Below, in pieces: positions 39,777 to 56,658 of a DNA stretch of 64,000 bases. Within the stretch, counting starts at the first letter, position 1; every line of letters begins with the position of its first letter. Under the pieces are notes generated by a model. It made no database searches, was not told the origin of the DNA, and saw only the letters and a list, made by a program, of their open reading frames with translations. The DNA is from Phapecoctavirus DIJ07P2: sequence record OZ035771.1. One strand, given 5' to 3'. The translations under genes were made by a program, and so were the position numbers.

Positions 39777-40577
39777 TTATTTGTTTAAATGGTCTTCAAC
39801 CATTTTGATAAAGCCTTCATCACTGAAGACTGTTCCTGCTTTCTCTCGGTAGACAAGCACTCCACGTTCTTCGTAGAGAGTTTGTTCTACAAAATTCAAA
39901 CCTGGGTTAACTACAACCATCTTAACCCCAATATTCAGGGCAGGGAAGAGTTCCCAGTTGAAGTTGATTACTTGGTTAGAGCAGCCTACAACGATAACCA
40001 TATCTTGTGATGTTAGTTGATCCAGTTTGTGATACATGTCTGTGTAGAGCGGTGCATTCTCACCAAAAAACACCACATTAGGCTTCACATATTTGTAATC
40101 GTCTACATCAATAGCTGCGTAACCCACATCTTTGATAATTTTGTTATCAACAACAACTTCTGGCAAGAAACCATGAACGTGCAATATTTCTTCTCTATCG
40201 ATTCCAGCGCGTTCTAATAGATCGTCAACGTTAGTAGTGATGTTAATAATCCTTTCTGCACCGTATTTTTCGAACCATTCTCCAATCTGAAGATGTGCTG
40301 GATTCGGGTCAACTTTCTCTAATTCCACGCGACGTTTATTGTAGAAGTCGTGAGTTTTACGGTAGAGGTTATATCCTTCCACATCTAAGCCACCCATAGC
40401 ATCAGGAATACCCTGTTCTTGCTGATAACCGGCACGGAAGTTGAAAATGTCACAAACCTCAGAAAGATCATAAGAAGACCATAACGCCTCCCCTGAAGAA
40501 GTATCTGTTCTAAAAGCTGGGATACCGCTATCCACAGATAGTCCTGCGCCAGTTATGAATATGACTCTACGCGGCAT
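39777..40577 (-). CDS. SIR2-family (sirtuin-like) NAD-dependent protein, zinc-ribbon-less
   Basis: GAGLSVDSGIPAFR, TTNVDDLLERAG, LHVHG, VVFFGE, VVGCSNQV motifs; no CxxC pairs. Confidence 0.7.
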   Translation of the reverse strand: MPRRVIFITGAGLSVDSGIPAFRTDTSSGEALWSSYDLSEVCDIFNFRAGYQQEQGIPDAMGGLDVEGYNLYRKTHDFYNKRRVELEKVDPNPAHLQIGEWFEKYGAERIINITTNVDDLLERAGIDREEILHVHGFLPEVVVDNKIIKDVGYAAIDVDDYKYVKPNVVFFGENAPLYTDMYHKLDQLTSQDMVIVVGCSNQVINFNWELFPALNIGVKMVVVNPGLNFVEQTLYEERGVLVYREKAGTVFSDEGFIKMVEDHLNK

Positions 40578-41307
40578 AAATCTCCTCCTTATATTTTTCG
40601 CAAATGCTTTTATTTGCAGGTTTATATTTTTCTTTCATCACCTTCAATCTTAGCTTCTCCAGAGCTATAGCACATCTCTCTGGATCGTTGAAACCATATT
40701 TGCAATACGTGGTCTTGTCAAACACAAACTTGAAAAAGAATGTTCTCTCTCTTGTTGCCACAAACACACAACTTAATCCTGAAGTGTTATCTATACGCTT
40801 CTTTTCTTTTTTGATATAAGATCCTTTCAAAATTTCTTGTTTTGCTAAAGCTCTAGCTACAATAGCTTCCTCTTTAGTTTTGAAACCTGAAACAGAGAAA
40901 GTTTCTTGGTTGTAGTTTATAACCCAAAGAAAAACACCATCCTTTTCATAAATACCTTCTAACCCATCCACATGTCTATTATTATTATTTAATAAATAGT
41001 TACTATCTAATAAATTACTTTCCGCATTATTAAGTTTATTGCCGTCGTCATGGTCTATAACATCTGGACAGTAATTATGGTACATTTTAAAACAAACTCT
41101 GTGCTCCAAGTATACAATACCATCTATTTTGACATGAGAGTAACCAACTTTATCAATAGTCCCTGCAATCTTCCCTGCGTATCTGCTATTCCACCTTTTG
41201 TTCTCTTTTGTTGTAGAAGGTTTAGGTTTCCAAACAAGACGACCATTCTCCACACTAAACCTTGATAACAAGTAATCTCTATCTGGTAAGGGTTTTCGTT
41301 CTATCAT
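40567..41307 (-). CDS. Freestanding homing endonuclease (HNH with AP2-like DNA-binding domain)
   Basis: HRVCFKMYHN...IDHDDGNKLNN HNH-like motif and VSGFKTKEEAIVARALAKQE AP2-like segment; overlaps SIR2 start by 11 nt. Confidence 0.65.
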   Translation of the reverse strand: MIERKPLPDRDYLLSRFSVENGRLVWKPKPSTTKENKRWNSRYAGKIAGTIDKVGYSHVKIDGIVYLEHRVCFKMYHNYCPDVIDHDDGNKLNNAESNLLDSNYLLNNNNRHVDGLEGIYEKDGVFLWVINYNQETFSVSGFKTKEEAIVARALAKQEILKGSYIKKEKKRIDNTSGLSCVFVATRERTFFFKFVFDKTTYCKYGFNDPERCAIALEKLRLKVMKEKYKPANKSICEKYKEEIYAA

Positions 41308-41850: not shown

Positions 41851-42501
41851 CTATACCAGACTTTGTAGGTATTTGTCAAGGGCTTCTTGATCACCTTGGC
41901 AAACATAGCAACGAAAGTCTTTAACAGATGGTACTTTATTCTCATCCCAGTCCCACATTATATTACCTTTGTAACGTGAACTAGGGAAGTCGAAAAATGC
42001 TGTATGGGTGATGTGGTGTGGACCGCCCCAAACCTCTGTAAAGGTGAACTGCGGATACGCTACCTTCACCGCCTCCATAAACCAAGCTTTACGAATCAAA
42101 GCATTGTTGATAAAATGCGCGTGACGTTCCATTTCTTCCCAGTTCTTCCACACACTTTTCTCGTCAAGGGAGAATACAAGATCCTCTTCAATATACAAGC
42201 CATCTTCGCATTCATCAAAATCTGCCTCAAGACCTCCTACAGGTTCGTCGAGTCTAACACCATCAAAAGCAGAATATACCCACCAACCATCTTCCAGTAA
42301 GGCTTTGATAGGGACGAAGCCTTTATCAGCATATTGATCGAATTGTTTGACACGGTGGCTTGTGCAGTCTTCAAACTCACATTCTAAACGATATGCACCT
42401 TTTCGACGAGCCTCAAGACCGTGTGTACTGAAAATAACAACACTTCCTTCACCATCATTACGATCTACTTGATAAGCAACCACTGGTTTTGAATTTGACA
42501 T
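41851..42501 (-). CDS. Hypothetical protein (216 aa)
   Basis: ORF in operon. Confidence 0.55.
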   Translation of the reverse strand: MSNSKPVVAYQVDRNDGEGSVVIFSTHGLEARRKGAYRLECEFEDCTSHRVKQFDQYADKGFVPIKALLEDGWWVYSAFDGVRLDEPVGGLEADFDECEDGLYIEEDLVFSLDEKSVWKNWEEMERHAHFINNALIRKAWFMEAVKVAYPQFTFTEVWGGPHHITHTAFFDFPSSRYKGNIMWDWDENKVPSVKDFRCYVCQGDQEALDKYLQSLV

Positions 42502-43184
42502 TATTTCTCCTTATCTAGAAGATTGTTAGACAAAAACACTGCACGAGCAAAACCACGTGCGGTTAGTGATCTAAGTTGTTTTGTTTTTGCACTAGCTCCA
42601 CCTAAGCTTTTCCAACCCCAGAAGCAGCCTATATGATCTACTGGTTTCTTCACTGGTTGAACAAAACCATTGCCGTGCCAAATACAAGTTTTCTTTGTAT
42701 ACCCATCACGGGTAGGCATTTTAGGATGAAAGCTTCCTTCCTCTTCAAACAAATACCCACCATACTCATAAGGATCAAAGTAAAAATCTGGTTTACGCCA
42801 TAAGGTTGAAAGTTTACCTACTGGGTTCTCAATCATCCAAGGAACATTATATTTGTTACCCAAAGCTTCCACTACACGAATATTAGCTAAAGCTTCATCT
42901 AATTCCTCTGTGCTACGTTCGTGTTTGCTACCACTACCTGCTAACATAGTGCAAGGTGGAAATCCAAAAATAATATCGGGTTTAGGTATTCCATGATCTT
43001 CAGGGTTGAATGTAGAATCTATCCAAGCATTCACATAGGTTATGTTTGGGTGCTCCATCCTAACCTCGTATTTACCGTGATCCCCTTCATCAGCGTTTAC
43101 ACAAAAACACTTGTGACCTGCTTCGGCATAACGTAACACCATGATCCCAGATCCGTCAAACATAGACAAAACTGTTTTACTCAT
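42501..43184 (-). CDS. Short C5-methyltransferase-like protein
   Basis: Motif I-like SMFDGSG, motif IV-like FGFPPC (Pro-Cys), motif VI-like ENPVG; only ~227 aa; start moved to M15 after GGAGGGG RBS. Confidence 0.45.
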   Translation of the reverse strand: MSKTVLSMFDGSGIMVLRYAEAGHKCFCVNADEGDHGKYEVRMEHPNITYVNAWIDSTFNPEDHGIPKPDIIFGFPPCTMLAGSGSKHERSTEELDEALANIRVVEALGNKYNVPWMIENPVGKLSTLWRKPDFYFDPYEYGGYLFEEEGSFHPKMPTRDGYTKKTCIWHGNGFVQPVKKPVDHIGCFWGWKSLGGASAKTKQLRSLTARGFARAVFLSNNLLDKEK

Positions 43185-43575
43185 TACCCCTCCATTCAAG
43201 ACAAGCCATAACTTTACGCCAATCACTTTCTGTTAGGAAGATCTGTTCTGAACTGATCCACAAATCTAAATCTTCTACATCTGGAAGGCGGTAGCGTAAC
43301 TCCAAGAGATCATGTTCTTCAGGAGAAATGTATCCCAAATGTTCTGCCATATCGTGGAACCAAGCCCAACCGTGCATATTTTTAACTACATGCTCTCGTT
43401 GCGTCATGACTTTACGTTTCAGTCCAAACCAAGAAGTGATTACCACTTTACTCTCTCGGAGACGTTTGTCAATAGCCACTGTTTCTTTTTCGATACTCAA
43501 CAACTTCACTCTTGCTTTGTTGAGATCCGCATGTGTTACTTTGAAGTAACTTTGTGACTGATCACACCAACCCAT
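43177..43575 (-). CDS. Hypothetical protein (132 aa)
   Basis: ORF in operon. Confidence 0.5.
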   Translation of the reverse strand: MGWCDQSQSYFKVTHADLNKARVKLLSIEKETVAIDKRLRESKVVITSWFGLKRKVMTQREHVVKNMHGWAWFHDMAEHLGYISPEEHDLLELRYRLPDVEDLDLWISSEQIFLTESDWRKVMACLEWRGNE

Positions 43576-43576
43576 A

Positions 43577-44248
43577 TCAATAACCTCCTTCGTAAGGTTT
43601 CACCTTAGCCCTATCATAATATAACATCTCTGCCTCCTTCCGTTTACGAATAGCTTCTTCTTTACTGTTACCATAGTATAAACTAATATGCTCTCCATTG
43701 ACTCGGATGTATGCAATCCATTTGCCCCTATCTTTTCTGTATTTTACCCCACAAATACCGGATAGATTATCTTTCCTTAGTTTTTGATCATAAGATTGCA
43801 TTGCGAGTGAAGCCCACTCACAGGTTTCTTTGCTATAAACATCAGCAGAATTAATTCTGTTTAAGGTTGTGTTTTGTGGTCTACTACCCATATCCTCAAC
43901 GAAATTCAAAAAACCTAAGTCCCCCTTCTCTAACCATCTACAGCATACAGAAACTCCACTACCTCCATACTTAGGATAATTCGGTGAGTTCTCATTGGTG
44001 CACCTGTCTATCATGGCATTGTAGGAATTATATGTATATCTATCCTCAATGAACTTGTAATGGTAACGCTCACAACCACAAGATTTAGTTTTACCAGATT
44101 TTAATCTTTCGGCTGTAGTAACAAACTTCTCACCGCAATGACAAATACAATTCCATTTTGTAGATCGTCCAGTCTCCTTAATTGCTACATCAAGAACTGT
44201 TATACCATTGAATACCATTCCAGACAGGTTTTCTAATTTCCTCCCCAT
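43577..44248 (-). CDS. Freestanding homing endonuclease-like protein with AP2-like domain
   Basis: Cys cluster CICHCGEKF...SCGCE and ICGVKYRKDRGKWIAYIRVNGEHISLYYGNSKEEAIRKRKE AP2-like segment; start moved to M27. Confidence 0.55.
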   Translation of the reverse strand: MGRKLENLSGMVFNGITVLDVAIKETGRSTKWNCICHCGEKFVTTAERLKSGKTKSCGCERYHYKFIEDRYTYNSYNAMIDRCTNENSPNYPKYGGSGVSVCCRWLEKGDLGFLNFVEDMGSRPQNTTLNRINSADVYSKETCEWASLAMQSYDQKLRKDNLSGICGVKYRKDRGKWIAYIRVNGEHISLYYGNSKEEAIRKRKEAEMLYYDRAKVKPYEGGY

Positions 44249-44249
44249 A

Positions 44250-45185
44250 CTATTCCTCAAAAGGTTTAAGTAAGTGTTTATTAGCGTGGAATCTTTTGAT
44301 GTAATCATCTTCTCCCATACTTTCATAAAGCTTCATCACGACATGGAAGGATTCATAGGCATATTCACGAAACCAACCACTAGTGATAGATGTGCAAACT
44401 TTAGATAAAGCCATCATAAAACTTTGCTTAGGTGTTGGACCTCCGATCTCTTCACCGAAAGGAATTTGTGAACGTTCCAAAGCCAAAACACACGCTTCTT
44501 CATAAACACCTAACAGGCGCACATGTTTTGGTTGAGCAAAAAACTTTTCTTTGCTGGTCATAACTTCACTTCCATCTTTCATATAAGATTTATATGCTGG
44601 AGCATCCATTACCGCGATTGCTTCATGGATAGAATCATGATCATAAACATACGGAACCTCATCACCTTTAAAGAAGTCTTTACTTTTTACGTTTAAGTTC
44701 GGATGAGAGTAAGTGTATGTTTCTTTCTCACGCAACTCATAAATACTCTTAAGATTTTCTGGGATCTTTGCGCCCAGTGACCGCATGAAATGAATATCTT
44801 TCATAGTTTTAAAGAAGTGAGGACTATCCTTTTTAAAACGATGACTCATTTTAAGAAGGTAGAGCACATCTAAAGGAGCAACAACATGTCCAGCGTAAGT
44901 TCGACGAACATCATCAGAATCTTCACAATAACTAATCAAAGCTTCTGTGCTATCTCCTTGAGAAGCAATATCGTATTCCAAATGTGCACCAGCTATCATT
45001 TTGACGTGGCCTTTGTTCCCTTTACGTTCTACAAGTTCAACAAACTCGTCTTGAGAGAACATTTTTGATAATTCTTCCCACTCTTGTTCTGTACAGAGAT
45101 AATCTAAATCTACACAAGGGCGATACAAGTCTTTTCCCATGTCCATAGCATGAATTTGTAATGCACGGCTACCAATTAACACCAT
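44250..45185 (-). CDS. Hypothetical protein with possible Pol-beta-type nucleotidyltransferase motif
   Basis: LIGSRALQIHAMDMGKDLYRPCVDLDY loosely resembles GS...D.D signature; speculative. Confidence 0.4.
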   Translation of the reverse strand: MVLIGSRALQIHAMDMGKDLYRPCVDLDYLCTEQEWEELSKMFSQDEFVELVERKGNKGHVKMIAGAHLEYDIASQGDSTEALISYCEDSDDVRRTYAGHVVAPLDVLYLLKMSHRFKKDSPHFFKTMKDIHFMRSLGAKIPENLKSIYELREKETYTYSHPNLNVKSKDFFKGDEVPYVYDHDSIHEAIAVMDAPAYKSYMKDGSEVMTSKEKFFAQPKHVRLLGVYEEACVLALERSQIPFGEEIGGPTPKQSFMMALSKVCTSITSGWFREYAYESFHVVMKLYESMGEDDYIKRFHANKHLLKPFEE

Positions 45186-45245
45186 AATATTTCTCCTCTA
45201 TTGGTTGATAGGTTAAGTTTATCAAGCTTCCAGATTTCTGTCAAT

Positions 45246-45266
45246 AAAAAACCCGCCGAAGCGGGT
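45246..45266 (-). terminator. Intrinsic terminator on minus strand (ACCCGC-TTCG-GCGGGT + T-tract)
   Basis: Third copy of the same hairpin as 16018/39114, inverted. Confidence 0.6.
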
Positions 45267-45275
45267 TATTATTTA

Positions 45276-45548
45276 CTAACACATTGAGGAAGAAGAGATC
45301 CAAACACCTCTTGTGGTTAAACCATTTTCATCCAACTCTACACCATAATCTTCACAAATGAAATCAATATAGTGATCTGCGGCTGGCGTTCCTGTAGGGT
45401 AATAAGTTTCTCCGTTACCGTAGTCACCTATCCAAGCTTGTTCCTGAAACTGTTCACAAAGTTCTTCGATTTCCTTACGAAACTTTCTTTGTGCTTGTTC
45501 CATCTCTTTAACTTTCTTTTTTATCAGCAGTTCGCCTTCAGACTCCAC
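45276..45548 (-). CDS. Small acidic protein, W-SSS-C-tail family member 1
   Basis: Ends ...GVWISSSSMC. Confidence 0.55.
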   Translation of the reverse strand: MESEGELLIKKKVKEMEQAQRKFRKEIEELCEQFQEQAWIGDYGNGETYYPTGTPAADHYIDFICEDYGVELDENGLTTRGVWISSSSMC

Positions 45549-45557
45549 AATCTCTCC

Positions 45558-45773
45558 TTAACAGCTACTACTGTGCCAAACGCCTTGAGAATTAACGACG
45601 AAACCATCATCACCTTCACCATAACAAGAAGAGGATTGCCAATCTTCAAAACAGATTGCGTTATCTTCTAAACTAAGACCAAAACCAGCATCTTCAGCTT
45701 CTTTTGTAAGTTCGTCCACTAAAGCCATAATAGCTTGGGCTTTTTCAGTTAATTCTTCAACATTACGATCACT
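45558..45773 (-). CDS. Small acidic protein, W-SSS-C-tail family member 2
   Basis: Start moved to MSDRNVEEL after GGAGGAG RBS; internal EDWQSSSC and C-terminal GVWHSSSC. Confidence 0.55.
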   Translation of the reverse strand, partial: SDRNVEELTEKAQAIMALVDELTKEAEDAGFGLSLEDNAICFEDWQSSSCYGEGDDGFVVNSQGVWHSSSC

Positions 45774-45775
45774 CA

Positions 45776-46051
45776 TTAGTATTTCTCCTCCGGTTGGAAA
45801 ACTGAACGACAAGCCCACATACTAGCTTCTTTTAAATGTTTAATAGCACAACGGATTTGATCAATACGCTCGTATGCAACATCTAATTCTTTTTCTGTGC
45901 CGTCAAAAGACCCATGATATGCTTCACAATACTCTTCCTCTAAAGCTTTGAAGATTAAACCTAAACGCTCTTCTGCATCTTTAATAGCGTTAACCTTGCC
46001 AATCTTATCGTCAGTATGCGCCTTATAACCTTTGATATCTTCGATTCCCAC
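45776..46051 (-). CDS. Hypothetical protein (about 91 aa, GTG start)
   Basis: AGGAGG RBS 5 nt before GTG. Confidence 0.45.
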   Translation of the reverse strand: MGIEDIKGYKAHTDDKIGKVNAIKDAEERLGLIFKALEEEYCEAYHGSFDGTEKELDVAYERIDQIRCAIKHLKEASMWACRSVFQPEEKY

Positions 46052-46062
46052 TTTACCTCCTA

Positions 46063-46260
46063 TTAACAACTTAAAGAAGATGGATGCCAATTTGTCCCAG
46101 TATTCTCATTTTCATCTTCTGGATCATAATAACCACCCATCCCATATTCAGGGGAGAAACGGAAACCTTCTCCAGTCTCGTCTGCTAACTGCTCTGCTTC
46201 CGCTAAAGCATCATAAGCTGCTTTTACGGCTTCTTCTACTGTTTTAAACTTGGTCGTCAT
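46063..46260 (-). CDS. Small acidic protein, W-SSS-C-tail family member 3
   Basis: Ends ...TNWHPSSLSC; GGAGAGGAG RBS. Confidence 0.55.
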   Translation of the reverse strand: MTTKFKTVEEAVKAAYDALAEAEQLADETGEGFRFSPEYGMGGYYDPEDENENTGTNWHPSSLSC

Positions 46261-46534
46261 AAAATTTCTCCTCTCCTAAAGACATGGTGACATGAAATGC
46301 ACGATATGTAAATTCGTTGTCCGTTGTATTTGAATAAAACTCAAATTGAACAACACCGTCTTGAGAAGACAAATACATGCCAATTTGAACTGTACCTTCT
46401 GGTACTAGGTAAGCATACTCTGGGCGTAGTGTTACATTGTAAAAATAAAGTTCACCAACACCCATTTCATCCCAAGCTTCCCAAGCGGTAACGAAGTTAC
46501 TTTCAAAACTTGTTACTGATCCGAACTCTGCCAT
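46244..46534 (-). CDS. Hypothetical protein (96 aa)
   Basis: ORF in operon. Confidence 0.5.
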   Translation of the reverse strand: MAEFGSVTSFESNFVTAWEAWDEMGVGELYFYNVTLRPEYAYLVPEGTVQIGMYLSSQDGVVQFEFYSNTTDNEFTYRAFHVTMSLGEEKFYDDQV

Positions 46535-47025
46535 AAAACCTCCTCAATTTTGTAGTTTGACTCCATCTCCAACACATTTCCACGAACGTCTCTCCGAAGA
46601 AAGGCATAAGCTTTATTAGGTATTGTAGACTCATATTTAACCATATCTGGCACAGCAAAAGATACTACTACTCCTGCTGGGCTTCTGTCAAGAGCCTTAT
46701 TAATATTTCTAAGGATATCGTTAGCCAAGATTTCTGCCAATTCTCCAAGAACAGTTTCTGTTATATCTTTATATCCCATTAAGTATTTGTTGATATCTTT
46801 CATCTCCGTATTGTTCAGAGTATAGTCCAAAGGATAGAAATTCAAAGCGGAGTCACTTTTATGTGTCCACATGAAATGCACCCGATCCGAGCAGAATCGT
46901 AACCCTCTTTGAAGAATATCTTCTACAACAGGCAGAATTTCTTTTGTCACATCATTAACCATGTTGTAATCTAAGATTTCTGCCAAGTTTGTTCTTTGTT
47001 CACCACGTTTACGTTTAGGAATCAC
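46513..47025 (-). CDS. Hypothetical protein (170 aa)
   Basis: ORF in operon. Confidence 0.5.
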   Translation of the reverse strand: MIPKRKRGEQRTNLAEILDYNMVNDVTKEILPVVEDILQRGLRFCSDRVHFMWTHKSDSALNFYPLDYTLNNTEMKDINKYLMGYKDITETVLGELAEILANDILRNINKALDRSPAGVVVSFAVPDMVKYESTIPNKAYAFLRRDVRGNVLEMESNYKIEEVLWQSSDQ

Positions 47026-47620
47026 TTGTTATTGCCCTCATTACCAAAGGTCGTAGAAAATCGTAAATCTCTTGTTTTGTTTTCCCACGAATGTTTAAAC
47101 AAGGAACATTATTGGCTTTAGCTATCTTCCAAGCCGTAGCTGTTCCACCTTTTGCATCTCCATGTTTATCAGTATTAGCACAAGCCAACAAGAAACATGA
47201 TGGAGCAGGATTCTCCAAATCTCTACCTAACACTTGATGCACATTACGTTGGTGCAATTTTCTAGCACCCTGCTTAAGCTTTTCATAGGCTGGGTGAACA
47301 TCTTTGATCCATTGCACAGAGATAGCATAGTTCATTGTATCTGGTTTTGCAAGAACAATAACATCCCCTGGAATCTGATTACCTTTGAAATTTTCCCAAG
47401 GAACATAAATCTCCTTGTTAGTAGGATTTTCAGACTCTTGGACACCTGTTTCAAAAGCAGAATCACTACCCTCTGCCTTCCCAGACCTTAATTTAAACCC
47501 AAGGTTTGAAAGCCATTTCCCTATGCCTACCATCAAAGCCCACTCTTCTTCGGATATGTCTCTACTTCCAACTCCCGTATAGAACAGTTCTGCCATAATC
47601 ACCTCAACAAGTAATTTCAA
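47015..47620 (-). CDS. DprA/Smf-like (SLOG Rossmann-fold) protein
   Basis: YTGVGSRDIS, LRSGKAEGSDSAF, HQRNVHQVLG, GGTATAWKIA segments resemble the DprA fold as recalled. Confidence 0.4.
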   Translation of the reverse strand: MKLLVEVIMAELFYTGVGSRDISEEEWALMVGIGKWLSNLGFKLRSGKAEGSDSAFETGVQESENPTNKEIYVPWENFKGNQIPGDVIVLAKPDTMNYAISVQWIKDVHPAYEKLKQGARKLHQRNVHQVLGRDLENPAPSCFLLACANTDKHGDAKGGTATAWKIAKANNVPCLNIRGKTKQEIYDFLRPLVMRAITSDS

Positions 47621-47912
47621 AAGGTGTATAGGGTTCCGTATTTCTCATGATCCAAGGACTGCTAGGATTGCTCGGATCATAAGGACCAAAAGGTTTTATG
47701 GTAGGTTGTGTTTCTTTCTTCTGAATCTCTTCAAAAATACGACGAAGTTCAGAATATTCTTGATCCACCATAAGATTCGGTGCATCTGATTCTACAGCTT
47801 GCAGATTATCTTCCTTAAAAAGAATCTCACGAACAAGATTAACATCTTCTGTTTCTAAGATAACTTCTTTACGGATATTGCCTACACTTTGAATAATTGT
47901 AATCTTATACAT
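47604..47912 (-). CDS. Hypothetical protein (102 aa)
   Basis: ORF in operon. Confidence 0.5.
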   Translation of the reverse strand: MYKITIIQSVGNIRKEVILETEDVNLVREILFKEDNLQAVESDAPNLMVDQEYSELRRIFEEIQKKETQPTIKPFGPYDPSNPSSPWIMRNTEPYTPFEITC

Positions 47913-48655
47913 TAATCCTCCTCAAGAGTTGAATAAAATTGAAGACCACCGTCCATATCGAAATAAGCAAATGTTAAGTTATTATTGAACACAGATCCAG
48001 TATCCATATAAACACGATTCGCATTGATAATAGGTGTTTTTACATAAGAGTGTCCATGAAACACATAGTCCACACCCATCACAACAGGAAGTTTCATTCC
48101 CTCTTTAGCACAGTCCACCATATCTCTGTCCCACATAAGTGCTTCAGCAAAACGGTTTTCCTGTGTTTTTGTCATCTTCAAAGTGTATTCTGGAATATCT
48201 GTTACAGGGAGATATTCCAAAGAAGATGGATACCCACCATGAATAAACGCAAGTTTCATGCCTCTGTAGTTAACAATGAGAACAACAGGTAAATCTTCTG
48301 TCATCATTGCTAAGGCTGTAGCTCCTTCTTCACCACATTCTTCAAGGACTGTATATCCTCCATTTTGATACCAACACTCGAAGTAGCTACGATCTCCTTC
48401 CAGCATAGCTTTAATCATCATGTCTTCATGATTTCCACGAATAGCATAGCGATTGTGTTTACGAGTAAATTCTAAAACACAACGAAAGTTTTGCTTTCCA
48501 CGGTCAGTAAGATCTCCTAAAGATACAACTACATCTGTATCTCGGATACCTAACTTTGCCTTTCCTTTTTCATACAAATTATAACAACCGTGCAGATCTC
48601 CAATTATAAAAAGATCTTGATCGCTTTTAACAGTAATTTCTCTATGTATGATCAC
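47912..48655 (-). CDS. Ser/Thr protein phosphatase (metallophosphoesterase)
   Basis: GDLHG, GDLTDRG, GNHE calcineurin-like motifs. Confidence 0.8.
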   Translation of the reverse strand: MIIHREITVKSDQDLFIIGDLHGCYNLYEKGKAKLGIRDTDVVVSLGDLTDRGKQNFRCVLEFTRKHNRYAIRGNHEDMMIKAMLEGDRSYFECWYQNGGYTVLEECGEEGATALAMMTEDLPVVLIVNYRGMKLAFIHGGYPSSLEYLPVTDIPEYTLKMTKTQENRFAEALMWDRDMVDCAKEGMKLPVVMGVDYVFHGHSYVKTPIINANRVYMDTGSVFNNNLTFAYFDMDGGLQFYSTLEED

Positions 48656-48981
48656 TTATCCTCCTCAAAATCTAAGAAAATAAAAATATTCACCTTTCCT
48701 TCAATCTTTTGTTCTAAAACAAGATCGGCAAATTCTGCATAAGCTTTCTCTTCAACTTTTTCAATATGCTCTGCGGCATCTTTAAAAGGTGTATCCCCAT
48801 CCACCTTTACTAATAAGAAAAGAGATCGCATTTCGACGCTTTTACTGTTACGAGGAAGGAAATCTACAGCTTCAACAATTCTCCAACCCAAATAGCCAGG
48901 AGTTTTATGAATCTCCCCTAAATGCTTTTCTAAGATTTTACGACCCTCGTCGATAAGGGCTTGTTCTGTAGTAATTTCCAT
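48652..48981 (-). CDS. Hypothetical protein (109 aa)
   Basis: ATGA-coupled. Confidence 0.5.
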   Translation of the reverse strand: MEITTEQALIDEGRKILEKHLGEIHKTPGYLGWRIVEAVDFLPRNSKSVEMRSLFLLVKVDGDTPFKDAAEHIEKVEEKAYAEFADLVLEQKIEGKVNIFIFLDFEEDK

Positions 48982-48991
48982 TCCTTCCTCC

Positions 48992-49582
48992 TCAAATTAT
49001 TAACGAAACCGCATGACTAAATTTTGGTTCAGATATAACCTCTGCTACAGTCACATATGTATCGTGCAGCCAAAAAGATTCTACTCTACAAACACAAATA
49101 CCGTTGATAATGAAATCTACACAGGCTTTATTATTTTCGCACACTTGTTGTCTATAAACAACCCCTAAAGAGTCATAAAGTGATCTCACTGTTGCTACCA
49201 TTTCATCTGTTTCATCTTCGTGCGAAACAAAGAAAACGAATACAGACAAGTTGTTAGCGAAAGTACTGCTATTCTCTACTTCAACCGACTTACAAGGTAA
49301 AAAGGAGTAATATTTACCGTTAGGTATCAATTTCGCCTCAACCTGGTTAAGTATGCTTTGAGATGGTTTTGTTACATAAAAAAGATTTTCTGTTGGGTTT
49401 TCAACATTACTCCTTACTATGCAACGAGTGGGGTTCGAAGGATCAAAAACATGATCGAAATCGACACACACAGGTAAGTTAACAACTTTAAACTTTTTGC
49501 TAAGAATGCTTACTGCGGTAAAAATCAAACCAGCGTTTATTTTGCCAGTGAAAGTTGAACGCATAACTACTCCTCGGATCAT
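48992..49582 (-). CDS. Hypothetical protein (196 aa)
   Basis: ORF in operon. Confidence 0.5.
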   Translation of the reverse strand: MIRGVVMRSTFTGKINAGLIFTAVSILSKKFKVVNLPVCVDFDHVFDPSNPTRCIVRSNVENPTENLFYVTKPSQSILNQVEAKLIPNGKYYSFLPCKSVEVENSSTFANNLSVFVFFVSHEDETDEMVATVRSLYDSLGVVYRQQVCENNKACVDFIINGICVCRVESFWLHDTYVTVAEVISEPKFSHAVSLII

Positions 49583-49773
49583 TCTACCAAAGAGAATTCC
49601 GCCTCTTCCAGGTAGATTACAGACCTTGTTGCATGATATTTAACGCTCCAGAAATTACCTTCGCGCCGTAAAAGTATCTCATTCACATCAAGATTACTTA
49701 GAAAAACCATATAACTTAAAGCTTGTTGACGCGTTGAGAATTGTTTCTCTAAAAGTTCTTCTCCGCTCTGCAT
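49579..49773 (-). CDS. Hypothetical protein (64 aa)
   Basis: ATGA-coupled. Confidence 0.45.
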   Translation of the reverse strand: MQSGEELLEKQFSTRQQALSYMVFLSNLDVNEILLRREGNFWSVKYHATRSVIYLEEAEFSLVE

Positions 49774-49783
49774 AATCCCTCCT

Positions 49784-49810
49784 TAAAAATACTCCCTCCG
49801 AGAAGGGAGT
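49784..49810 (-). terminator. Putative minus-strand terminator (ACTCCCT..AGGGAGT + T-tract)
   Basis: Hairpin followed on minus strand by ATTTTTAA and GGAGGG RBS. Confidence 0.45.
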
Positions 49811-50021
49811 ATAAGTATATCACGTAGTTGTTATGTTGTCTTCTTGGATACCAGAATCCACTTCTGCAAACATATCTTCTGCACTGTAATTATTTCCAGT
49901 CCAGCGTGATAGAAGGATAGCACCAATCTCTTTTGCATGAGATTCAGACTCCGCATAAACGTTAGTCCCAGTGTCACCTTTTTCTTTTCATGTGCATAAA
50001 TGCAGTAATAATTGTAAGCCA

Positions 50022-50258
50022 TTAGTCTTCCCAGTCATTGTTCTCGGTAGAGTGAACCAAAGCTCGCACGATGCCGCCATAGTCTACTGCTTGGTTTGCA
50101 GCATGTTCGGCATAAACTTCAATAGCTTTTTTGAAGAAAAGAGCAGTAGCTGCTTCAATATTATCCATTTCACCCTCTACATCAGTAGAAAGTGAAAGGT
50201 TGAGGCTTTCATCTACTTCATCAAAATCAATAGCCACTGTCATAATTAGTTTACCCAT
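50022..50258 (-). CDS. Hypothetical acidic protein (78 aa)
   Basis: ORF in operon. Confidence 0.5.
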   Translation of the reverse strand: MGKLIMTVAIDFDEVDESLNLSLSTDVEGEMDNIEAATALFFKKAIEVYAEHAANQAVDYGGIVRALVHSTENNDWED

Positions 50259-50270
50259 AGTTCACACTCC

Positions 50271-50780
50271 TTAAACAAAATAAAATGGTTGAGAGAGGCC
50301 CAAACGATTCTTTGGGTCGTATACATACCAAGCGTATGCTGTCTTATCTGTTCCACCTGCAACAAACGAAGGCCGTTCTGAAAGAACTATAAGGTTTGTC
50401 GGTGGATTCTTTTGATGGAACTCTCGTCGTTTCTTTGACTCCAAGAAGCCCAACCGAAGAAGATAAATACAAACATCCGCCTCTTTTAAGCTCTTTTCCA
50501 AGAACTCCATTGCTAACTTAAATGGAGGGTTTGTGATTATAATGTCGGGACGATTTTCCCACTCGTGACTAAAATAATCCTTACCTTCTTCAAGTTCACA
50601 ATATTCTGAACCTTCAGGAAAATGGCGATAAATCGCTTCAGCTTCACCTCTGCAAGGTTCTGCAAAAACCCAACCTTCTTCCTTTAGATTTTTGAAATCT
50701 ATAACACTAAACAAACTATTGATTGCTTTTTGCGGTGTAGGATAATAATCGCTCGTTGGGCGATCATAATCTAATGCCAT
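50271..50780 (-). CDS. Small N6-adenine DNA methyltransferase-like protein
   Basis: IIITNPPF motif (N/DPPF/Y catalytic motif IV); 169 aa. Confidence 0.45.
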   Translation of the reverse strand: MALDYDRPTSDYYPTPQKAINSLFSVIDFKNLKEEGWVFAEPCRGEAEAIYRHFPEGSEYCELEEGKDYFSHEWENRPDIIITNPPFKLAMEFLEKSLKEADVCIYLLRLGFLESKKRREFHQKNPPTNLIVLSERPSFVAGGTDKTAYAWYVYDPKNRLGLSQPFYFV

Positions 50781-51198
50781 CTAAAATCTCCTCTTTTGTA
50801 ATATTATCCAACTCTTTAAAAGATGAAATCTCGTTTAATAATCCTATTTGATCAGCCTCTAGAGGATAAGTGTTTTTATCTGTTTTTCTAGACAAAATAT
50901 CCTCAACAAACTTATCAATAGCCAAAGAAGAATCATAAAATTTTAAAAGTTGGTAATCCATAGGAGATATTTTGTCATCTCTTAGAAATATTTCTAACAT
51001 GTTTTCAGGAGTATCGTGGTTTAGTTTATGTTCACCAAAAATATTAACTTCGTAAACATCTTTGCCAAACCAACGTTTCTTCTTTTCAACAGTATAGGTT
51101 TTTGCCACCAGACCATCTAAACAGTTTCTTGCCCTCTTACATGTTTGACGGTAAGAGTGGATAGCGCCTTCAACAAACTTAGCAGGAACTTGTAACAT
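50764..51198 (-). CDS. Hypothetical protein (144 aa)
   Basis: ORF in operon. Confidence 0.5.
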   Translation of the reverse strand: MLQVPAKFVEGAIHSYRQTCKRARNCLDGLVAKTYTVEKKKRWFGKDVYEVNIFGEHKLNHDTPENMLEIFLRDDKISPMDYQLLKFYDSSLAIDKFVEDILSRKTDKNTYPLEADQIGLLNEISSFKELDNITKEEILDGIRL

Positions 51199-53930: not shown

Positions 53931-54191
53931 TTACTCCGCAATTTGAGCCATGAGATCACGCAGTTCGGTAAAACCGCCTACGTATGTTACCTCCCCGTTC
54001 ACTTCAGACAGAATTTGTGGAAATGTGCGTGGAGGAACTCCGGTAAGATCAACAACTGTTTTAGTCATTGATTCTAAATCGTAGTCTTGGTCAAGACTTA
54101 AATATTCAAACTGTTTATTGCGCATGGTTAATAGTTGTTTTGACATTTCGCAAAATTGACAGTTAGGTTTACCAAAAATTACAAATTCCAT
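53931..54191 (-). CDS. Glutaredoxin/thioredoxin-like redox protein (probable RNR reductant)
   Basis: 86 aa with CQFC active-site motif; lies between rmlD and lysozyme in the nrd operon. Confidence 0.6.
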   Translation of the reverse strand: MEFVIFGKPNCQFCEMSKQLLTMRNKQFEYLSLDQDYDLESMTKTVVDLTGVPPRTFPQILSEVNGEVTYVGGFTELRDLMAQIAE

Positions 54192-55033
54192 TACCTCTCC
54201 TTATTAAGTAATACTGCTAAAGACCGTTCAATACCTTTATTTAAATCTGATTTTGTAAGATAGTGACTGGTTACTAATTGTGACTTCACCGGACGTGCTG
54301 CTGGAGCATTATAGGTTGAAGCTGATACCGCCGATATCTTAACAGGTTCTGGCATCTGTGTCAAGATCTTTTCCGCAAACTCCGCCCAAGAAATAAGATG
54401 GCTTCCTGCAAAATGGTAAGTCTTTACAGATCTTGACCAACCTGTTTTTAATACTTCAAAAATAGCTTCTGCTAAATCTGGGGCATATGTTGGACAAGAG
54501 AACTGATCAGCAACAATAATAAAATCACGTTGTCCATCATTATAGCGAGACAACATGGTTTTTAGAAAGTTATTTCCAAATTCACTATATACAGACGCTG
54601 TTCGAATAATATATGCGTTTGGGTTAACTCCTCGCACCATTTTTTCACCGAGTTCTTTCGTATACCCATAATTGTTTATCGGGTTAGGTGTAGTGTCTTC
54701 AAAAATAGGATGAGAATAATTAAAAATATAGTCTGTAGAAATATGCACAAAATCAATTTTAAGTTTGCTGCACACTGCCGCAATATTTGCAGGGCCATAG
54801 GCATTAACAGCCAAAGCAGTAGCAAAATCCTGTTCTGCTTTATCTACAGCCGTATAAGCAGCGCAATTAATAACACCATCTACATAATCTTCAACAATAG
54901 CGTTTCGCACAGCTTCAAAATTTGTAATATCTACACGTTCTTTAGGATAAATTAAAGACACATTTGAAGGAGCCACTTTACGTAAAGCTTGTCCCAGTTG
55001 TCCATTACCACCCAATACCAGATATGTTAGCAT
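54191..55033 (-). CDS. rmlD: dTDP-4-dehydrorhamnose reductase
   Basis: LVLGGNGQLG Rossmann motif, STDYIF and YGYTK motifs. Confidence 0.8.
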   Translation of the reverse strand: MLTYLVLGGNGQLGQALRKVAPSNVSLIYPKERVDITNFEAVRNAIVEDYVDGVINCAAYTAVDKAEQDFATALAVNAYGPANIAAVCSKLKIDFVHISTDYIFNYSHPIFEDTTPNPINNYGYTKELGEKMVRGVNPNAYIIRTASVYSEFGNNFLKTMLSRYNDGQRDFIIVADQFSCPTYAPDLAEAIFEVLKTGWSRSVKTYHFAGSHLISWAEFAEKILTQMPEPVKISAVSASTYNAPAARPVKSQLVTSHYLTKSDLNKGIERSLAVLLNKER

Positions 55034-55593
55034 ACACCCTCGCTACGTAGCTGTTGAAAAGACTTAGCCATTGCATCTTTTGTTGATAAGATAGGTTTAA
55101 AATCTTCGTCAAAAATCATATCGAAGCCCCAATCAATCCCTATATCAGGATCATCCCAACGTAAACTTTGTTCGCTGGAAGGGTCGTATGGAGTTGTGCA
55201 TTTGTATTCGAAGATAGCATCCATACTCAACACTATAAAACCATGCGCCAAACCAGGTGGAAGCCAGAACTGTGTATGGTGTCGTGCACGAAGAACAACA
55301 CCGTCCCAAGCACCGTAAGTAGGACTATCTTTACGTAGGTCTACAGCGAAATCCAATACTTCCCCACTTACACAACGAACAAGCTTACCTTGCGGATTAT
55401 TTGTTTGAAAGTGCATTCCTCGCAAAACACCGAAGTTTGATTTAGACATGTTATCTTGAACGAAAGTTTGTCTACCGATGATATCTTCGTATTTTTGTTC
55501 ATTATATGTTTCTAAAAAGAAACCACGATCATCTTTATAAACGTCTGGTTTGATAATTACCGCACCTTCAATTTTTGTTTTTTCTACTTTCAT
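55027..55593 (-). CDS. rmlC: dTDP-4-dehydrorhamnose 3,5-epimerase
   Basis: KIEGAVIIKPDVYKDDRGFF, GMHFQ, WLPPGLAHGF cupin motifs; start moved to MKVEKTK after GGAGAG. Confidence 0.8.
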   Translation of the reverse strand: MKVEKTKIEGAVIIKPDVYKDDRGFFLETYNEQKYEDIIGRQTFVQDNMSKSNFGVLRGMHFQTNNPQGKLVRCVSGEVLDFAVDLRKDSPTYGAWDGVVLRARHHTQFWLPPGLAHGFIVLSMDAIFEYKCTTPYDPSSEQSLRWDDPDIGIDWGFDMIFDEDFKPILSTKDAMAKSFQQLRSEGVC

Positions 55594-55737
55594 TTTCTCT
55601 CCGCTAATTTGAGTAGGTATTGCCCGTACTCTGTTTTCTTCAGTGAGTTTCCATGATATACCAAAGTCTCTAAAGAAATCCACCCTTTTTTGAAAGCAAT
55701 TTCTTCCAGGCACGCAATCTTCAACCCTTGACGGTTC

Positions 55738-56658
55738 TCAATAGTTTGCACTCCAACCCAGTTCAGACTCTATCTTAGAAGGATTGATTTCATAACGCAA
55801 GTCATGCCCTTTACGATCTTCAACAAAAGTTATCAAGTTGGAAGAAGGGTAGGTTCCTGCTTCTGGATGTACAGCATCCATGTAGTCACAAACCATATAG
55901 ATGATCTCCATATTGGTTTTGGGATTACGTGTTCCCACATTATACGTTTTACCTGGTTCTCCACCTGTTGCCACTTGAAGAATAGCTCGCGCATGATCCT
56001 CAACAAAAAGCCAGTCTCGCACCTGATCGCCTTTACCATACACCGGAATCTCTTTATTCGTCAAGATACTTGTGATGATTTTTGGGATCAGCTTTTCTGG
56101 ATGTTGATAGGGTCCAAAGTTATTGGAGCAGTTGGTTATCACAACAGGCAAATCGTAGGTACGGTGCCAAGCTTTCACAAGATGGTCAGATGCTGCCTTA
56201 GACGCACTGTATGGGCTTGAAGGGGCATAAGCTGTCTCTTCGGTAAAGGGAACGCCAGAGTCTGCCATATCGCCGTACACTTCGTCTGTGGAGACGTGTA
56301 CGAACATCTTCAGTTTATTCTTTGGGAGGAGCCTTGCAGCTTCCAATAAATTGTATGTACCAATAATATTGGAGTCGATGAAAACTCGTGGATTCTTGAT
56401 AGAATTATCCACATGACTCTCTGCCGCTAAGTGAATGATGAAATCGGGATTGCACTCTACTACTAAACTTTTTACTTGGGCTTCGTTTGCCAAATCTGTC
56501 ATGCTTAGTTTAACGTGAGTGATATCGCCTACATTCTCAATATCTGCTGCATAGCTCATCTTATCAACGACAAAAACTTCGTTATTAGGATCTTGACAAA
56601 GAGAGCGCACCACGGCACTCCCAATAAAACCAAGACCACCTGTTACCAGATAGCGCAT
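55738..56658 (-). CDS. rmlB: dTDP-glucose 4,6-dehydratase
   Basis: MRYLVTGGLGFIGS, YSASKAASDHLV (YxxxK), HVSTDEVYG. Confidence 0.85.
   Translation of the reverse strand: MRYLVTGGLGFIGSAVVRSLCQDPNNEVFVVDKMSYAADIENVGDITHVKLSMTDLANEAQVKSLVVECNPDFIIHLAAESHVDNSIKNPRVFIDSNIIGTYNLLEAARLLPKNKLKMFVHVSTDEVYGDMADSGVPFTEETAYAPSSPYSASKAASDHLVKAWHRTYDLPVVITNCSNNFGPYQHPEKLIPKIITSILTNKEIPVYGKGDQVRDWLFVEDHARAILQVATGGEPGKTYNVGTRNPKTNMEIIYMVCDYMDAVHPEAGTYPSSNLITFVEDRKGHDLRYEINPSKIESELGWSANY

Follow-up and report, generated by a model that had tools for sequence, protein, structure and literature searches.

The window analysed here, a 64,000-nt stretch of the genome of Phapecoctavirus DIJ07P2 (record OZ035771.1), carries two short open reading frames (ORFs) whose products resemble DNA methyltransferases: ORF A, with 227 amino acids (aa), and ORF B, with 169 aa. 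A sequence-only reading had pointed to both and to their motifs (I, IV with its Pro-Cys and VI in ORF A; NPPF in ORF B). Both ORFs are indeed there, on the minus strand, and the motifs it named are present and invariant, or nearly so, within each family (Table 1). We consider it probable that ORF A and ORF B are two independent orphan phage methyltransferases, which depend on S-adenosylmethionine (AdoMet) and contain little beyond the catalytic Rossmann domain, with ORF A acting on cytosine C5 in DNA and ORF B presumably on adenine N6 in DNA.

Across window bases 42000–51000, identity to Escherichia phage nepoznato (Phapecoctavirus, Stephanstirmvirinae) is 98.9%; a further 60 phAPEC8-like phages match most of this region. 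In the RefSeq record of nepoznato, ORF A corresponds to gp197, a ‘DNA methyltransferase’ with the note Dcm, and ORF B to gp215, also a ‘DNA methyltransferase’. Proteins identical to ORF A (on 438 public contigs, named ‘Dcm’) and to ORF B (on 424, named ‘DNA methyltransferase’) are recorded for Phapecoctavirus, and both genes already carry methyltransferase labels in RefSeq and UniProt. GGAGGGG lies a few bases upstream of the ORF A ATG (43184), and GAGGAG upstream of the ORF B ATG (50780). A longer reading of ORF A from a GTG at 43226 was rejected, as the N-termini of homologues begin at the ATG. In PHROGs, ORF A matched phrog_757 (E = 1.8e-84, residues 1–225 on profile positions 13–223 of 247) and ORF B matched phrog_799 (E = 2.8e-59), both labelled DNA methyltransferase. 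Because of these matches, the full-length homologues in many phages and the exact sequences on record, neither ORF is a chance reading frame.

Table 1. Coordinates of the two methyltransferase-like ORFs, their motifs and other genes named in the text (positions in the window; K42 Dcm and HP1 Dam are discussed in the text)
Feature	Position	Strand	Remarks
ORF A, 227 aa	42501-43184	minus	phrog_757; predicted minimal DNA cytosine-C5 methyltransferase, phage ‘mini-Dcm’
ORF A motif I, FDGSG, residues 9-13	43146-43160	minus	AdoMet-binding loop; D10, G11, S12, G13 invariant in 43 homologues; aligns to M.HaeIII motif I
ORF A motif IV, PPC, residues 76-78	42951-42959	minus	Cys78 predicted nucleophile; C78 invariant; equivalent to C82 mutated in K42 Dcm
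ORF A motif VI, ENP, residues 119-121	42822-42830	minus	E119, N120, P121 invariant; E119 equivalent to E128 of K42 Dcm
ORF A TKKT, residues 163-166	42687-42698	minus	motif VIII position; K164 invariant, K165 is K/R; equivalent to K175/K176 of K42 Dcm
ORF A C-terminal block, RSLTARGFAR, residues 205-214	42543-42572	minus	resembles motif IX; R205, T208 invariant
ORF B, 169 aa	50271-50780	minus	phrog_799; predicted minimal N6-adenine-type methyltransferase, catalytic core only
ORF B YPTP, residues 13-16	50733-50744	minus	motif X-like, N-terminal to motif I; T15 invariant, Y13 and P16 nearly so; aligns with D-x-W-A-T-P of HP1 Dam (hhalign)
ORF B EPCRG, residues 41-45	50646-50660	minus	variant of motif I/AdoMet loop; E41, P42, C43 invariant, G45 nearly so
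ORF B motif IV, NPPF, residues 84-87	50520-50531	minus	predicted catalytic amino-methyltransferase motif; T83, N84, P85, P86 invariant
216-aa gene	41851-42501	minus	phrog_8514; own AAGGAG
HNH/AP2 homing-endonuclease-like gene	43577-44326	minus	phrog_374, E = 1.5e-62; 249 aa, compared to 110 aa in nepoznato
Second HNH-like gene	40567-41307		
Sir2-family protein	39777-40577	minus	PF02146, E = 2.2e-20
196-aa protein	48992-49582	minus	phrog_4806
RmlD	54191-55033	minus	dTDP-rhamnose pathway, nucleotide-metabolism block
RmlC	55027-55713	minus	dTDP-rhamnose pathway, nucleotide-metabolism block
RmlB-like 4,6-dehydratase	55738-56658	minus	annotated in nepoznato as four small hypothetical ORFs

The length of the two proteins, which had been remarked on as unusually short, is shared by their relatives. 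Searches with tblastn found ORF A homologues in 1487 phage records (1466 near full length) and ORF B homologues in 543 (457 full-length). At 90% identity, the ORF A family forms 870 clusters, all of about 215–267 aa, and the ORF B family forms 247. The relatives of ORF A measure 215–247 aa and the aligned relatives of ORF B mostly 165–180 aa. A wider search of the ORF B family returned 13,693 cluster representatives (50% identity) at E ≤ 1e-3 and 7,097 at E ≤ 1e-10; the best library representatives are mostly 160–260 aa long, the exceptions being a few shorter proteins and two tandem fusions. Because small size is uniform across both families, it is a family property and not a sign of truncation. 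The idea of minimal methyltransferases was borne out.

The anatomy of ORF A was compared with that of canonical C5 enzymes (PF00145: E. coli Dcm, M.HhaI and M.HaeIII; the catalytic domain of DNMT3A/3B), whose FxGxG, PC and ENV order is matched by motifs I, IV and VI of ORF A. The comparison set consisted of E. coli Dcm and seven diverse phage C5 methyltransferases, 287–472 aa in length. Motif I starts at residue 9 in ORF A compared to 7–10 in the eight canonical enzymes (after the N-terminal extension of Dcm), motif IV at 76 compared to 71–81, motif VI at 119 compared to 110–129 and motif VIII at 163 compared to 152–170. Over these four motifs the N-terminal two thirds of ORF A is collinear with normal C5 enzymes. 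Beyond them the two groups differ. Motif VIII reads TKKT in the ORF A family and QxRxR in the canonical enzymes, and the variable gap, which holds the target-recognition region and separates motif VIII from the conserved block that follows, is 38–41 aa in 42 family members compared to 76–148 aa in the canonical set. Motif X, GN[SA][VI], was not found in any of 43 family members. In the canonical enzymes it lies 30–35 aa beyond motif IX and is followed by a tail of 16–38 aa, whereas the ORF A family has 16–36 aa in all from motif IX to the end; ORF A itself terminates at residue 227, 13 residues past RSLTARGFAR, with no GN(S/A)V. Its last helix, at residues 210–219, is a candidate for a stand-in for motif X.

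When the ORF A family was aligned by hhalign to E. coli Dcm or to the eight-enzyme alignment, only motifs I–IV (probability 29%) and a short motif IX-like block were matched, and the family block R205-S-L-T-(P/A)-R-G-F-A-R matched RRLTPRECAR of E. coli Dcm weakly (E = 0.012–0.027). The AlphaFold2 model of ORF A (predicted local distance difference test score, pLDDT, of 89.7) has a C5-methyltransferase fold. PDB searches returned M.HaeIII at E = 0.081 for the N-terminus, and the profile search gave only a spurious match to Anosmin. The short variable gap, the collinear N-terminus and the missing motif X therefore show the family to be a reduced C5 methyltransferase, which has shed most of the target-recognition domain and in which motif X appears to have been merged or lost.

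A homologue of ORF A has been tested. From K42, a strain of phage KarlJaspers, Wang et al. obtained four mutants that escape retron Ec86 (bioRxiv 10.1101/2023.08.16.553469; Cell Rep 2024 43:114857), and all four had lesions in a 711-bp gene for a ‘Dcm-like C5 cytosine methyltransferase’. In the same study (bioRxiv 10.1101/2023.08.16.553469), expression of K42 Dcm was toxic only if Ec86 was present. Liquid chromatography coupled to mass spectrometry (LC-MS) detected high 5-methylcytosine (5mC) on the multicopy single-stranded DNA (msDNA) of Ec86 with wild-type K42 Dcm and not with C82A/E128A/K175A/K176A, and altering CCTGG in the msDNA stem abolished Ec86 defence. The AlphaFold model of K42 Dcm was found to resemble DNMT3A. 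E. coli MG1655 encodes a Dcm of its own, yet msDNA 5mC was low in this strain without the phage enzyme, which triggered Ec86 there (bioRxiv 10.1101/2023.08.16.553469).

The genome of BASEL phage KarlJaspers (Bas06) contains a 711-bp Dcm gene, as in K42, and its product (236 aa) aligns full-length with ORF A at 50% identity (E = 1e-71). The four residues mutated in K42 Dcm, C82, E128, K175 and K176, correspond to C78, E119, K164 and K165 of ORF A in identical local context. KarlJaspers Dcm and ORF A belong to the same PHROG family and length class with identical catalytic Cys, Glu and Lys-Lys, and both are encoded by orphan genes in an early region, although K42/KarlJaspers is a T1-like siphovirus and the phage carrying ORF A is a 150-kb myovirus. 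Judged by this full-length identity and the four matched residues, ORF A belongs to a family with demonstrated DNA C5-methylating activity, as a new member of the already characterised phage mini-Dcm family. Because a relative has been tested, ORF A is very probably a DNA cytosine-C5 methylase. The conserved residues, together with the mutants of its homologue, allow its chemistry to be proposed: Cys78 of PPC would attack C6 of a flipped-out cytosine, Glu119 of ENP would protonate N3, and the methyl group of AdoMet would then pass to C5.

In ORF B, the YPTP, EPCRG and NPPF motifs are all invariant or nearly so among 42 relatives, and their order reads as that of the gamma class of amino-methyltransferases. 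M.TaqI has VETPP, LEPACAHG and NPPY in the equivalent order. The structures matched by the AlphaFold2 model of ORF B (pLDDT 90.5) were class I Rossmann methyltransferases of the N6-adenine type, and the viral predicted-structure neighbours beyond the ORF B family include proteins named DNA N-6-adenine-methyltransferase; by itself, a predicted fold of this kind cannot tell a DNA from an RNA substrate. Sub-threshold Pfam matches among the 42 relatives were mainly to families of DNA adenine methylases, namely EcoRI_methylase (36), Dam PF05869 (18), Eco57I (13) and N6_Mtase (5), with the generic MTS small domain in 16. PDB searches with the ORF B profile returned weak, sub-threshold methyltransferase matches only.

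In size and layout ORF B resembles the mini-Dams of PF05869 (HP1 Dam, 173 aa; the T1-type Dam of KarlJaspers, 233 aa), which share an N-terminal D-x-(Y/W)-x-T-P, an acidic-Pro/Cys motif I and NPP(F/Y) near residue 70–85. Mini-Dams are specific for GATC, where they methylate adenine in DNA, and lack a separate recognition domain. Aligned by hhalign with HP1 Dam, the ORF B family matched over 150 columns, from the N-terminal D-x-aromatic-x-T-P to NPP(F/Y)S (E = 1.4e-4, probability 52.6%). Against PF05869, on which HP1 Dam as a control scored 250.8 bits, ORF B had nothing at E < 1 and the best member of its family reached E = 0.0046. ORF B is at best a distant sister of the mini-Dams, and their site specificity is not transferable to it. 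A homologue with 36% identity, kp12 of the P2-like Vibrio phage Kappa, lies in the early replication operon at the place where HP1 keeps Dam. The C-terminus of kp12 is zinc-ribbon-like, and some other relatives of ORF B have a Cys-rich insert. Together with the Pfam matches and the HP1 Dam alignment, these features lean towards DNA as the substrate.

No recognition domain was found in ORF B itself, all 169 aa of which make up the catalytic core. The gamma-class enzymes (M.TaqI, MmeI, M.BseCI, CamA and type I HsdM) have a recognition domain or subunit of 180 to >300 aa, whereas ORF B has neither such a domain nor a conserved partner gene. A precedent for a very small NPPY enzyme that methylates DNA at a defined site is PamA, a 141-aa adenine methyltransferase of a Staphylococcus aureus prophage, which methylates GATC as judged by DpnI digestion (bioRxiv 10.1101/2024.04.17.589803). 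A link between the two through Gram-positive relatives of ORF B was considered and not made, since the listed Staphylococcus match is the large 92-kb phage SEP9, which is not phi11-like. As we found no experimentally tested member of the ORF B family in the literature, we infer its activity. ORF B belongs to a very large annotated family; most likely it methylates adenine N6 in DNA and is built like M.TaqI's N-terminal catalytic domain.

Both enzymes would presumably methylate the replicating phage DNA and so blunt particular restriction systems of the natural hosts. Word statistics over the whole window showed that many short palindromes are strongly avoided, with z-scores of –10.8 for GTAC, –8.6 for CTAG, –7.6 for GGCC, –6.1 for CTSAG, –4.9 for CCGG and –3.2 for CCSGG; GGATCC, CTGCAG, TCCGGA, GGCGCC and GCATGC have zero copies. 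Not avoided, with counts at or above expectation, were GATC (z = +1.6), CCWGG (z = +1.4) and GCGC. This pattern fits coverage of GATC and CCWGG by methylation. The target of ORF A is probably a CCWGG-like site, because its homologue acts on CCTGG of the retron msDNA and CCWGG is not avoided in the genome. Nothing specific was found in the literature on the methylomes of rV5, phi92, phAPEC8-like phages or K139/Kappa kp12. ORF A may come at a cost, since retron Ec86/Eco1 senses enzymes of this kind as its trigger. From the presence of ORF A, phAPEC8-like phages are predicted to carry that trigger, which is relevant to the choice of therapy phages.

Several observations weigh against this reading or narrow it. 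In Pfam, PF00145 matched ORF A below threshold (11.6 bits compared to a cut-off of 22, E = 0.18) and over the N-terminal 89 residues only, and gave even a weak match in only 6 of 43 relatives. The best match of ORF B, EcoRI_methylase, was also sub-threshold (14.7 bits compared to 26.4, E = 0.02), and NCBIfam had no match for either protein. Classification by hidden Markov models, the check proposed with the sequence-only reading, would mislead with Pfam or NCBIfam alone; only PHROGs and comparison of folds recognised the two proteins. Annotation pipelines relying on these two libraries will miss both families, which lie below their thresholds and are very abundant in phages (~3% and ~1% of phage records). 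As to the site of methylation, CCWGG was assigned to K42 Dcm from E. coli Dcm and is backed only by the msDNA mutants, not by mapping (bioRxiv 10.1101/2023.08.16.553469). Between motif VIII and the C-terminal block, ORF A reads PVDHIGCFWGWKS and KarlJaspers Dcm reads LPKEDDKDNPGWAK; since this variable segment differs, the site of ORF A may differ as well.

The palindrome counts bear on the same question. That GATC and CCWGG are not avoided could equally reflect the Dam and Dcm of the host. Because the pattern cannot separate the phage enzymes from those of the host, GATC as the site of ORF B is a guess only. Any protection afforded by the two enzymes is also narrow and cannot be broad, because phages related to this one have shown high sensitivity to the restriction systems examined to date. 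ORF B has orthologues in those phages (that of PaulScherrer falls in the 90% cluster of ORF B, and the EmilHeitz copy is 47.6% identical). Sensitivity despite these orthologues argues against non-specific adenine methylation and against a bulky genome-wide modification.

Other readings of the two proteins were weighed against this background. The substrate of ORF B might not be DNA. METTL5, RsmC/RlmG-type enzymes and HemK are likewise small NPPF/NPPY Rossmann enzymes, and they act on RNA or protein glutamine. ORF B could by analogy make N6-methyladenosine or N2-methylguanosine in ribosomal or transfer RNA of host or phage, or methylate a protein glutamine, which we consider unlikely. For ORF A, one could imagine the first step of a hypermodification, either carboxymethyl transfer from carboxy-S-adenosylmethionine (Cx-SAM) as in CmoX, or formation of 5mC that is then oxidised and glycosylated through dTDP-rhamnose genes. 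CmoX is among the structural neighbours of ORF A, the window encodes RmlB, RmlC and RmlD, and rhamnosylation of phage DNA has been speculated on by others. We regard this scheme as very unlikely. The homologue of ORF A yielded 5mC by LC-MS in a CmoA+ host, in which Cx-SAM is present. CmoX is defined by SPPC together with an Arg in place of the motif X Asn; ORF A reads PPC, and no motif X can be recognised in it. A CmoA, ligase, TET/JBP dioxygenase or glycosyltransferase was looked for among window ORFs of at least 90 aa and not found, and the high restriction sensitivity of related phages speaks against a bulky modification here too.

Loss of activity is another conceivable explanation, in which ORF A, ORF B or both would be catalytically dead remnants kept for binding or depleting AdoMet or as decoys. 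The sub-threshold Pfam and NCBIfam scores, the non-canonical motif VIII and absent motif X of ORF A, and the lack of restriction protection seen in relatives would all be expected of such remnants. Yet the catalytic residues are all invariant across 42–43 diverse homologues, the homologue of ORF A is active, and both families are very large and uniformly intact by the counts given above, so that we give this explanation even less weight than the hypermodification scheme. The least credible proposal, raised as an option in the sequence-only reading, is that ORF A modifies a free base or nucleotide, in the manner of thymidylate synthase or deoxycytidine monophosphate hydroxymethylase, and not polymeric DNA. 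Its small size and missing recognition domain are all that favours this. The fold and motifs of ORF A are those of AdoMet-dependent DNA C5 methyltransferases and not of folate-dependent enzymes of the thymidylate synthase type, and the phage has a separate ThyX-type thymidylate synthase. A homologue methylates DNA: K42 Dcm made 5mC in msDNA, and ORF A shares 50% identity with the Bas06 counterpart of that enzyme. The window ORFs yielded no thymidylate-synthase-like, TET or glycosyltransferase partner. The proposal is accordingly not supported.

Within the reading as DNA methyltransferases, the tandem relatives of ORF B suggest how so small an enzyme might work. P0335 (560 aa) and P0364 (448 aa), two proteins found in public read assemblies, each have a pair of complete ORF B-type domains, at residues 152–320 and 377–544 of P0335 and 46–214 and 268–433 of P0364, and the two copies within each protein are 54–62% identical to each other. 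In both proteins motif IV is degenerate in copy 1 (NPPH or HPPS), and copy 2 retains NPPY. The N-termini of P0335 and P0364 resemble a signal peptide. Since two such domains occur fused in nature, with motif IV degenerate in the first, we propose that ORF B would probably work as a dimer, in which a single catalytic protomer is enough. In type III Mod dimers and in METTL3-METTL14, only one protomer is catalytic. More tentatively, and at well below even odds, specificity in the ORF B family may arise solely in the dimer, one protomer reading the DNA while the other methylates.

A related thought concerns both proteins. Having no real recognition domain, the two mini-enzymes may not be simple copies of host Dam and Dcm, a suggestion we make tentatively, at rather less than even odds. 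The K42 enzyme may differ from host Dcm in its site or substrate preference. The mini-Dcm may prefer a different or relaxed substrate, such as hairpin or partly single-stranded DNA, or the outer cytosine. Such an altered preference would explain why Ec86 is activated in a dcm+ host where the host Dcm fails to do so. If the suggestion is true, the ORF B family could be the smallest known sequence-reading adenine methyltransferase, or could act on RNA. A structural question that reaches beyond this phage is how a 38-aa or absent recognition region yields sequence specificity; the tandem relatives of ORF B provide a handle on it. For the phage itself, the outcome is chiefly a tidy annotation of two real orphan minimal methyltransferases; the points of interest are sequence reading by stripped-down enzymes, the triggering of Ec86 by a mini-Dcm and not by host Dcm, and the substrate of ORF B.

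The surroundings of the two genes differ between phage groups. ORF A is flanked by genes of phrog_8514 and phrog_16551, families with no assigned function, and by HNH/AP2 homing-endonuclease-like genes, and ORF B by genes of phrog_15078 and phrog_14731, likewise with no assigned function. None of these neighbours recurs beside the homologues in KarlJaspers, PaulSarasin, Kappa, FV3 or ABPH49, and a conserved partner or specificity subunit was looked for and not found. Apart from the HNH/AP2 homing-endonuclease-like genes, no restriction nuclease was matched by Pfam or PADLOC beside either gene; PADLOC gave only weak MTase_II and DruM matches, to ORF A and ORF B themselves. With no nuclease partner, ORF A and ORF B are orphan methyltransferases. 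The ORF A stop overlaps by one base (TAATG) the start of the 216-aa phrog_8514 gene, which suggests that the two are translationally coupled; in T1-like phages the 216-aa gene is absent from beside Dcm. This phage and Vequintavirinae share the order PhoH, protease, methyltransferase. T1-like phages pair a mini-Dcm with a PF05869 mini-Dam, and this phage pairs a mini-Dcm with ORF B, a parallel that is suggestive of an analogous role.

Some further genes of the window were recorded in passing. The HNH/AP2 homing-endonuclease-like gene of phrog_374 differs in length from its counterpart in nepoznato, which makes it the main indel that distinguishes the two genomes in this part. The Sir2-family protein is encoded ~1.9 kb downstream of ORF A in the same direction. 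The 196-aa protein is called ‘histidyl tRNA synthetase’ in PHROGs and RefSeq, a label that looks unreliable because the protein has no Pfam match and is far too short. Single Pfam matches among the other 57 window ORFs included those to an Acb2/Tad1 hairpin domain (of the anti-CBASS/anti-Thoeris sponge type), NADAR and a CapR homology, and also to a resolvase, intein/Hint modules, anaerobic NrdD and ThyX.

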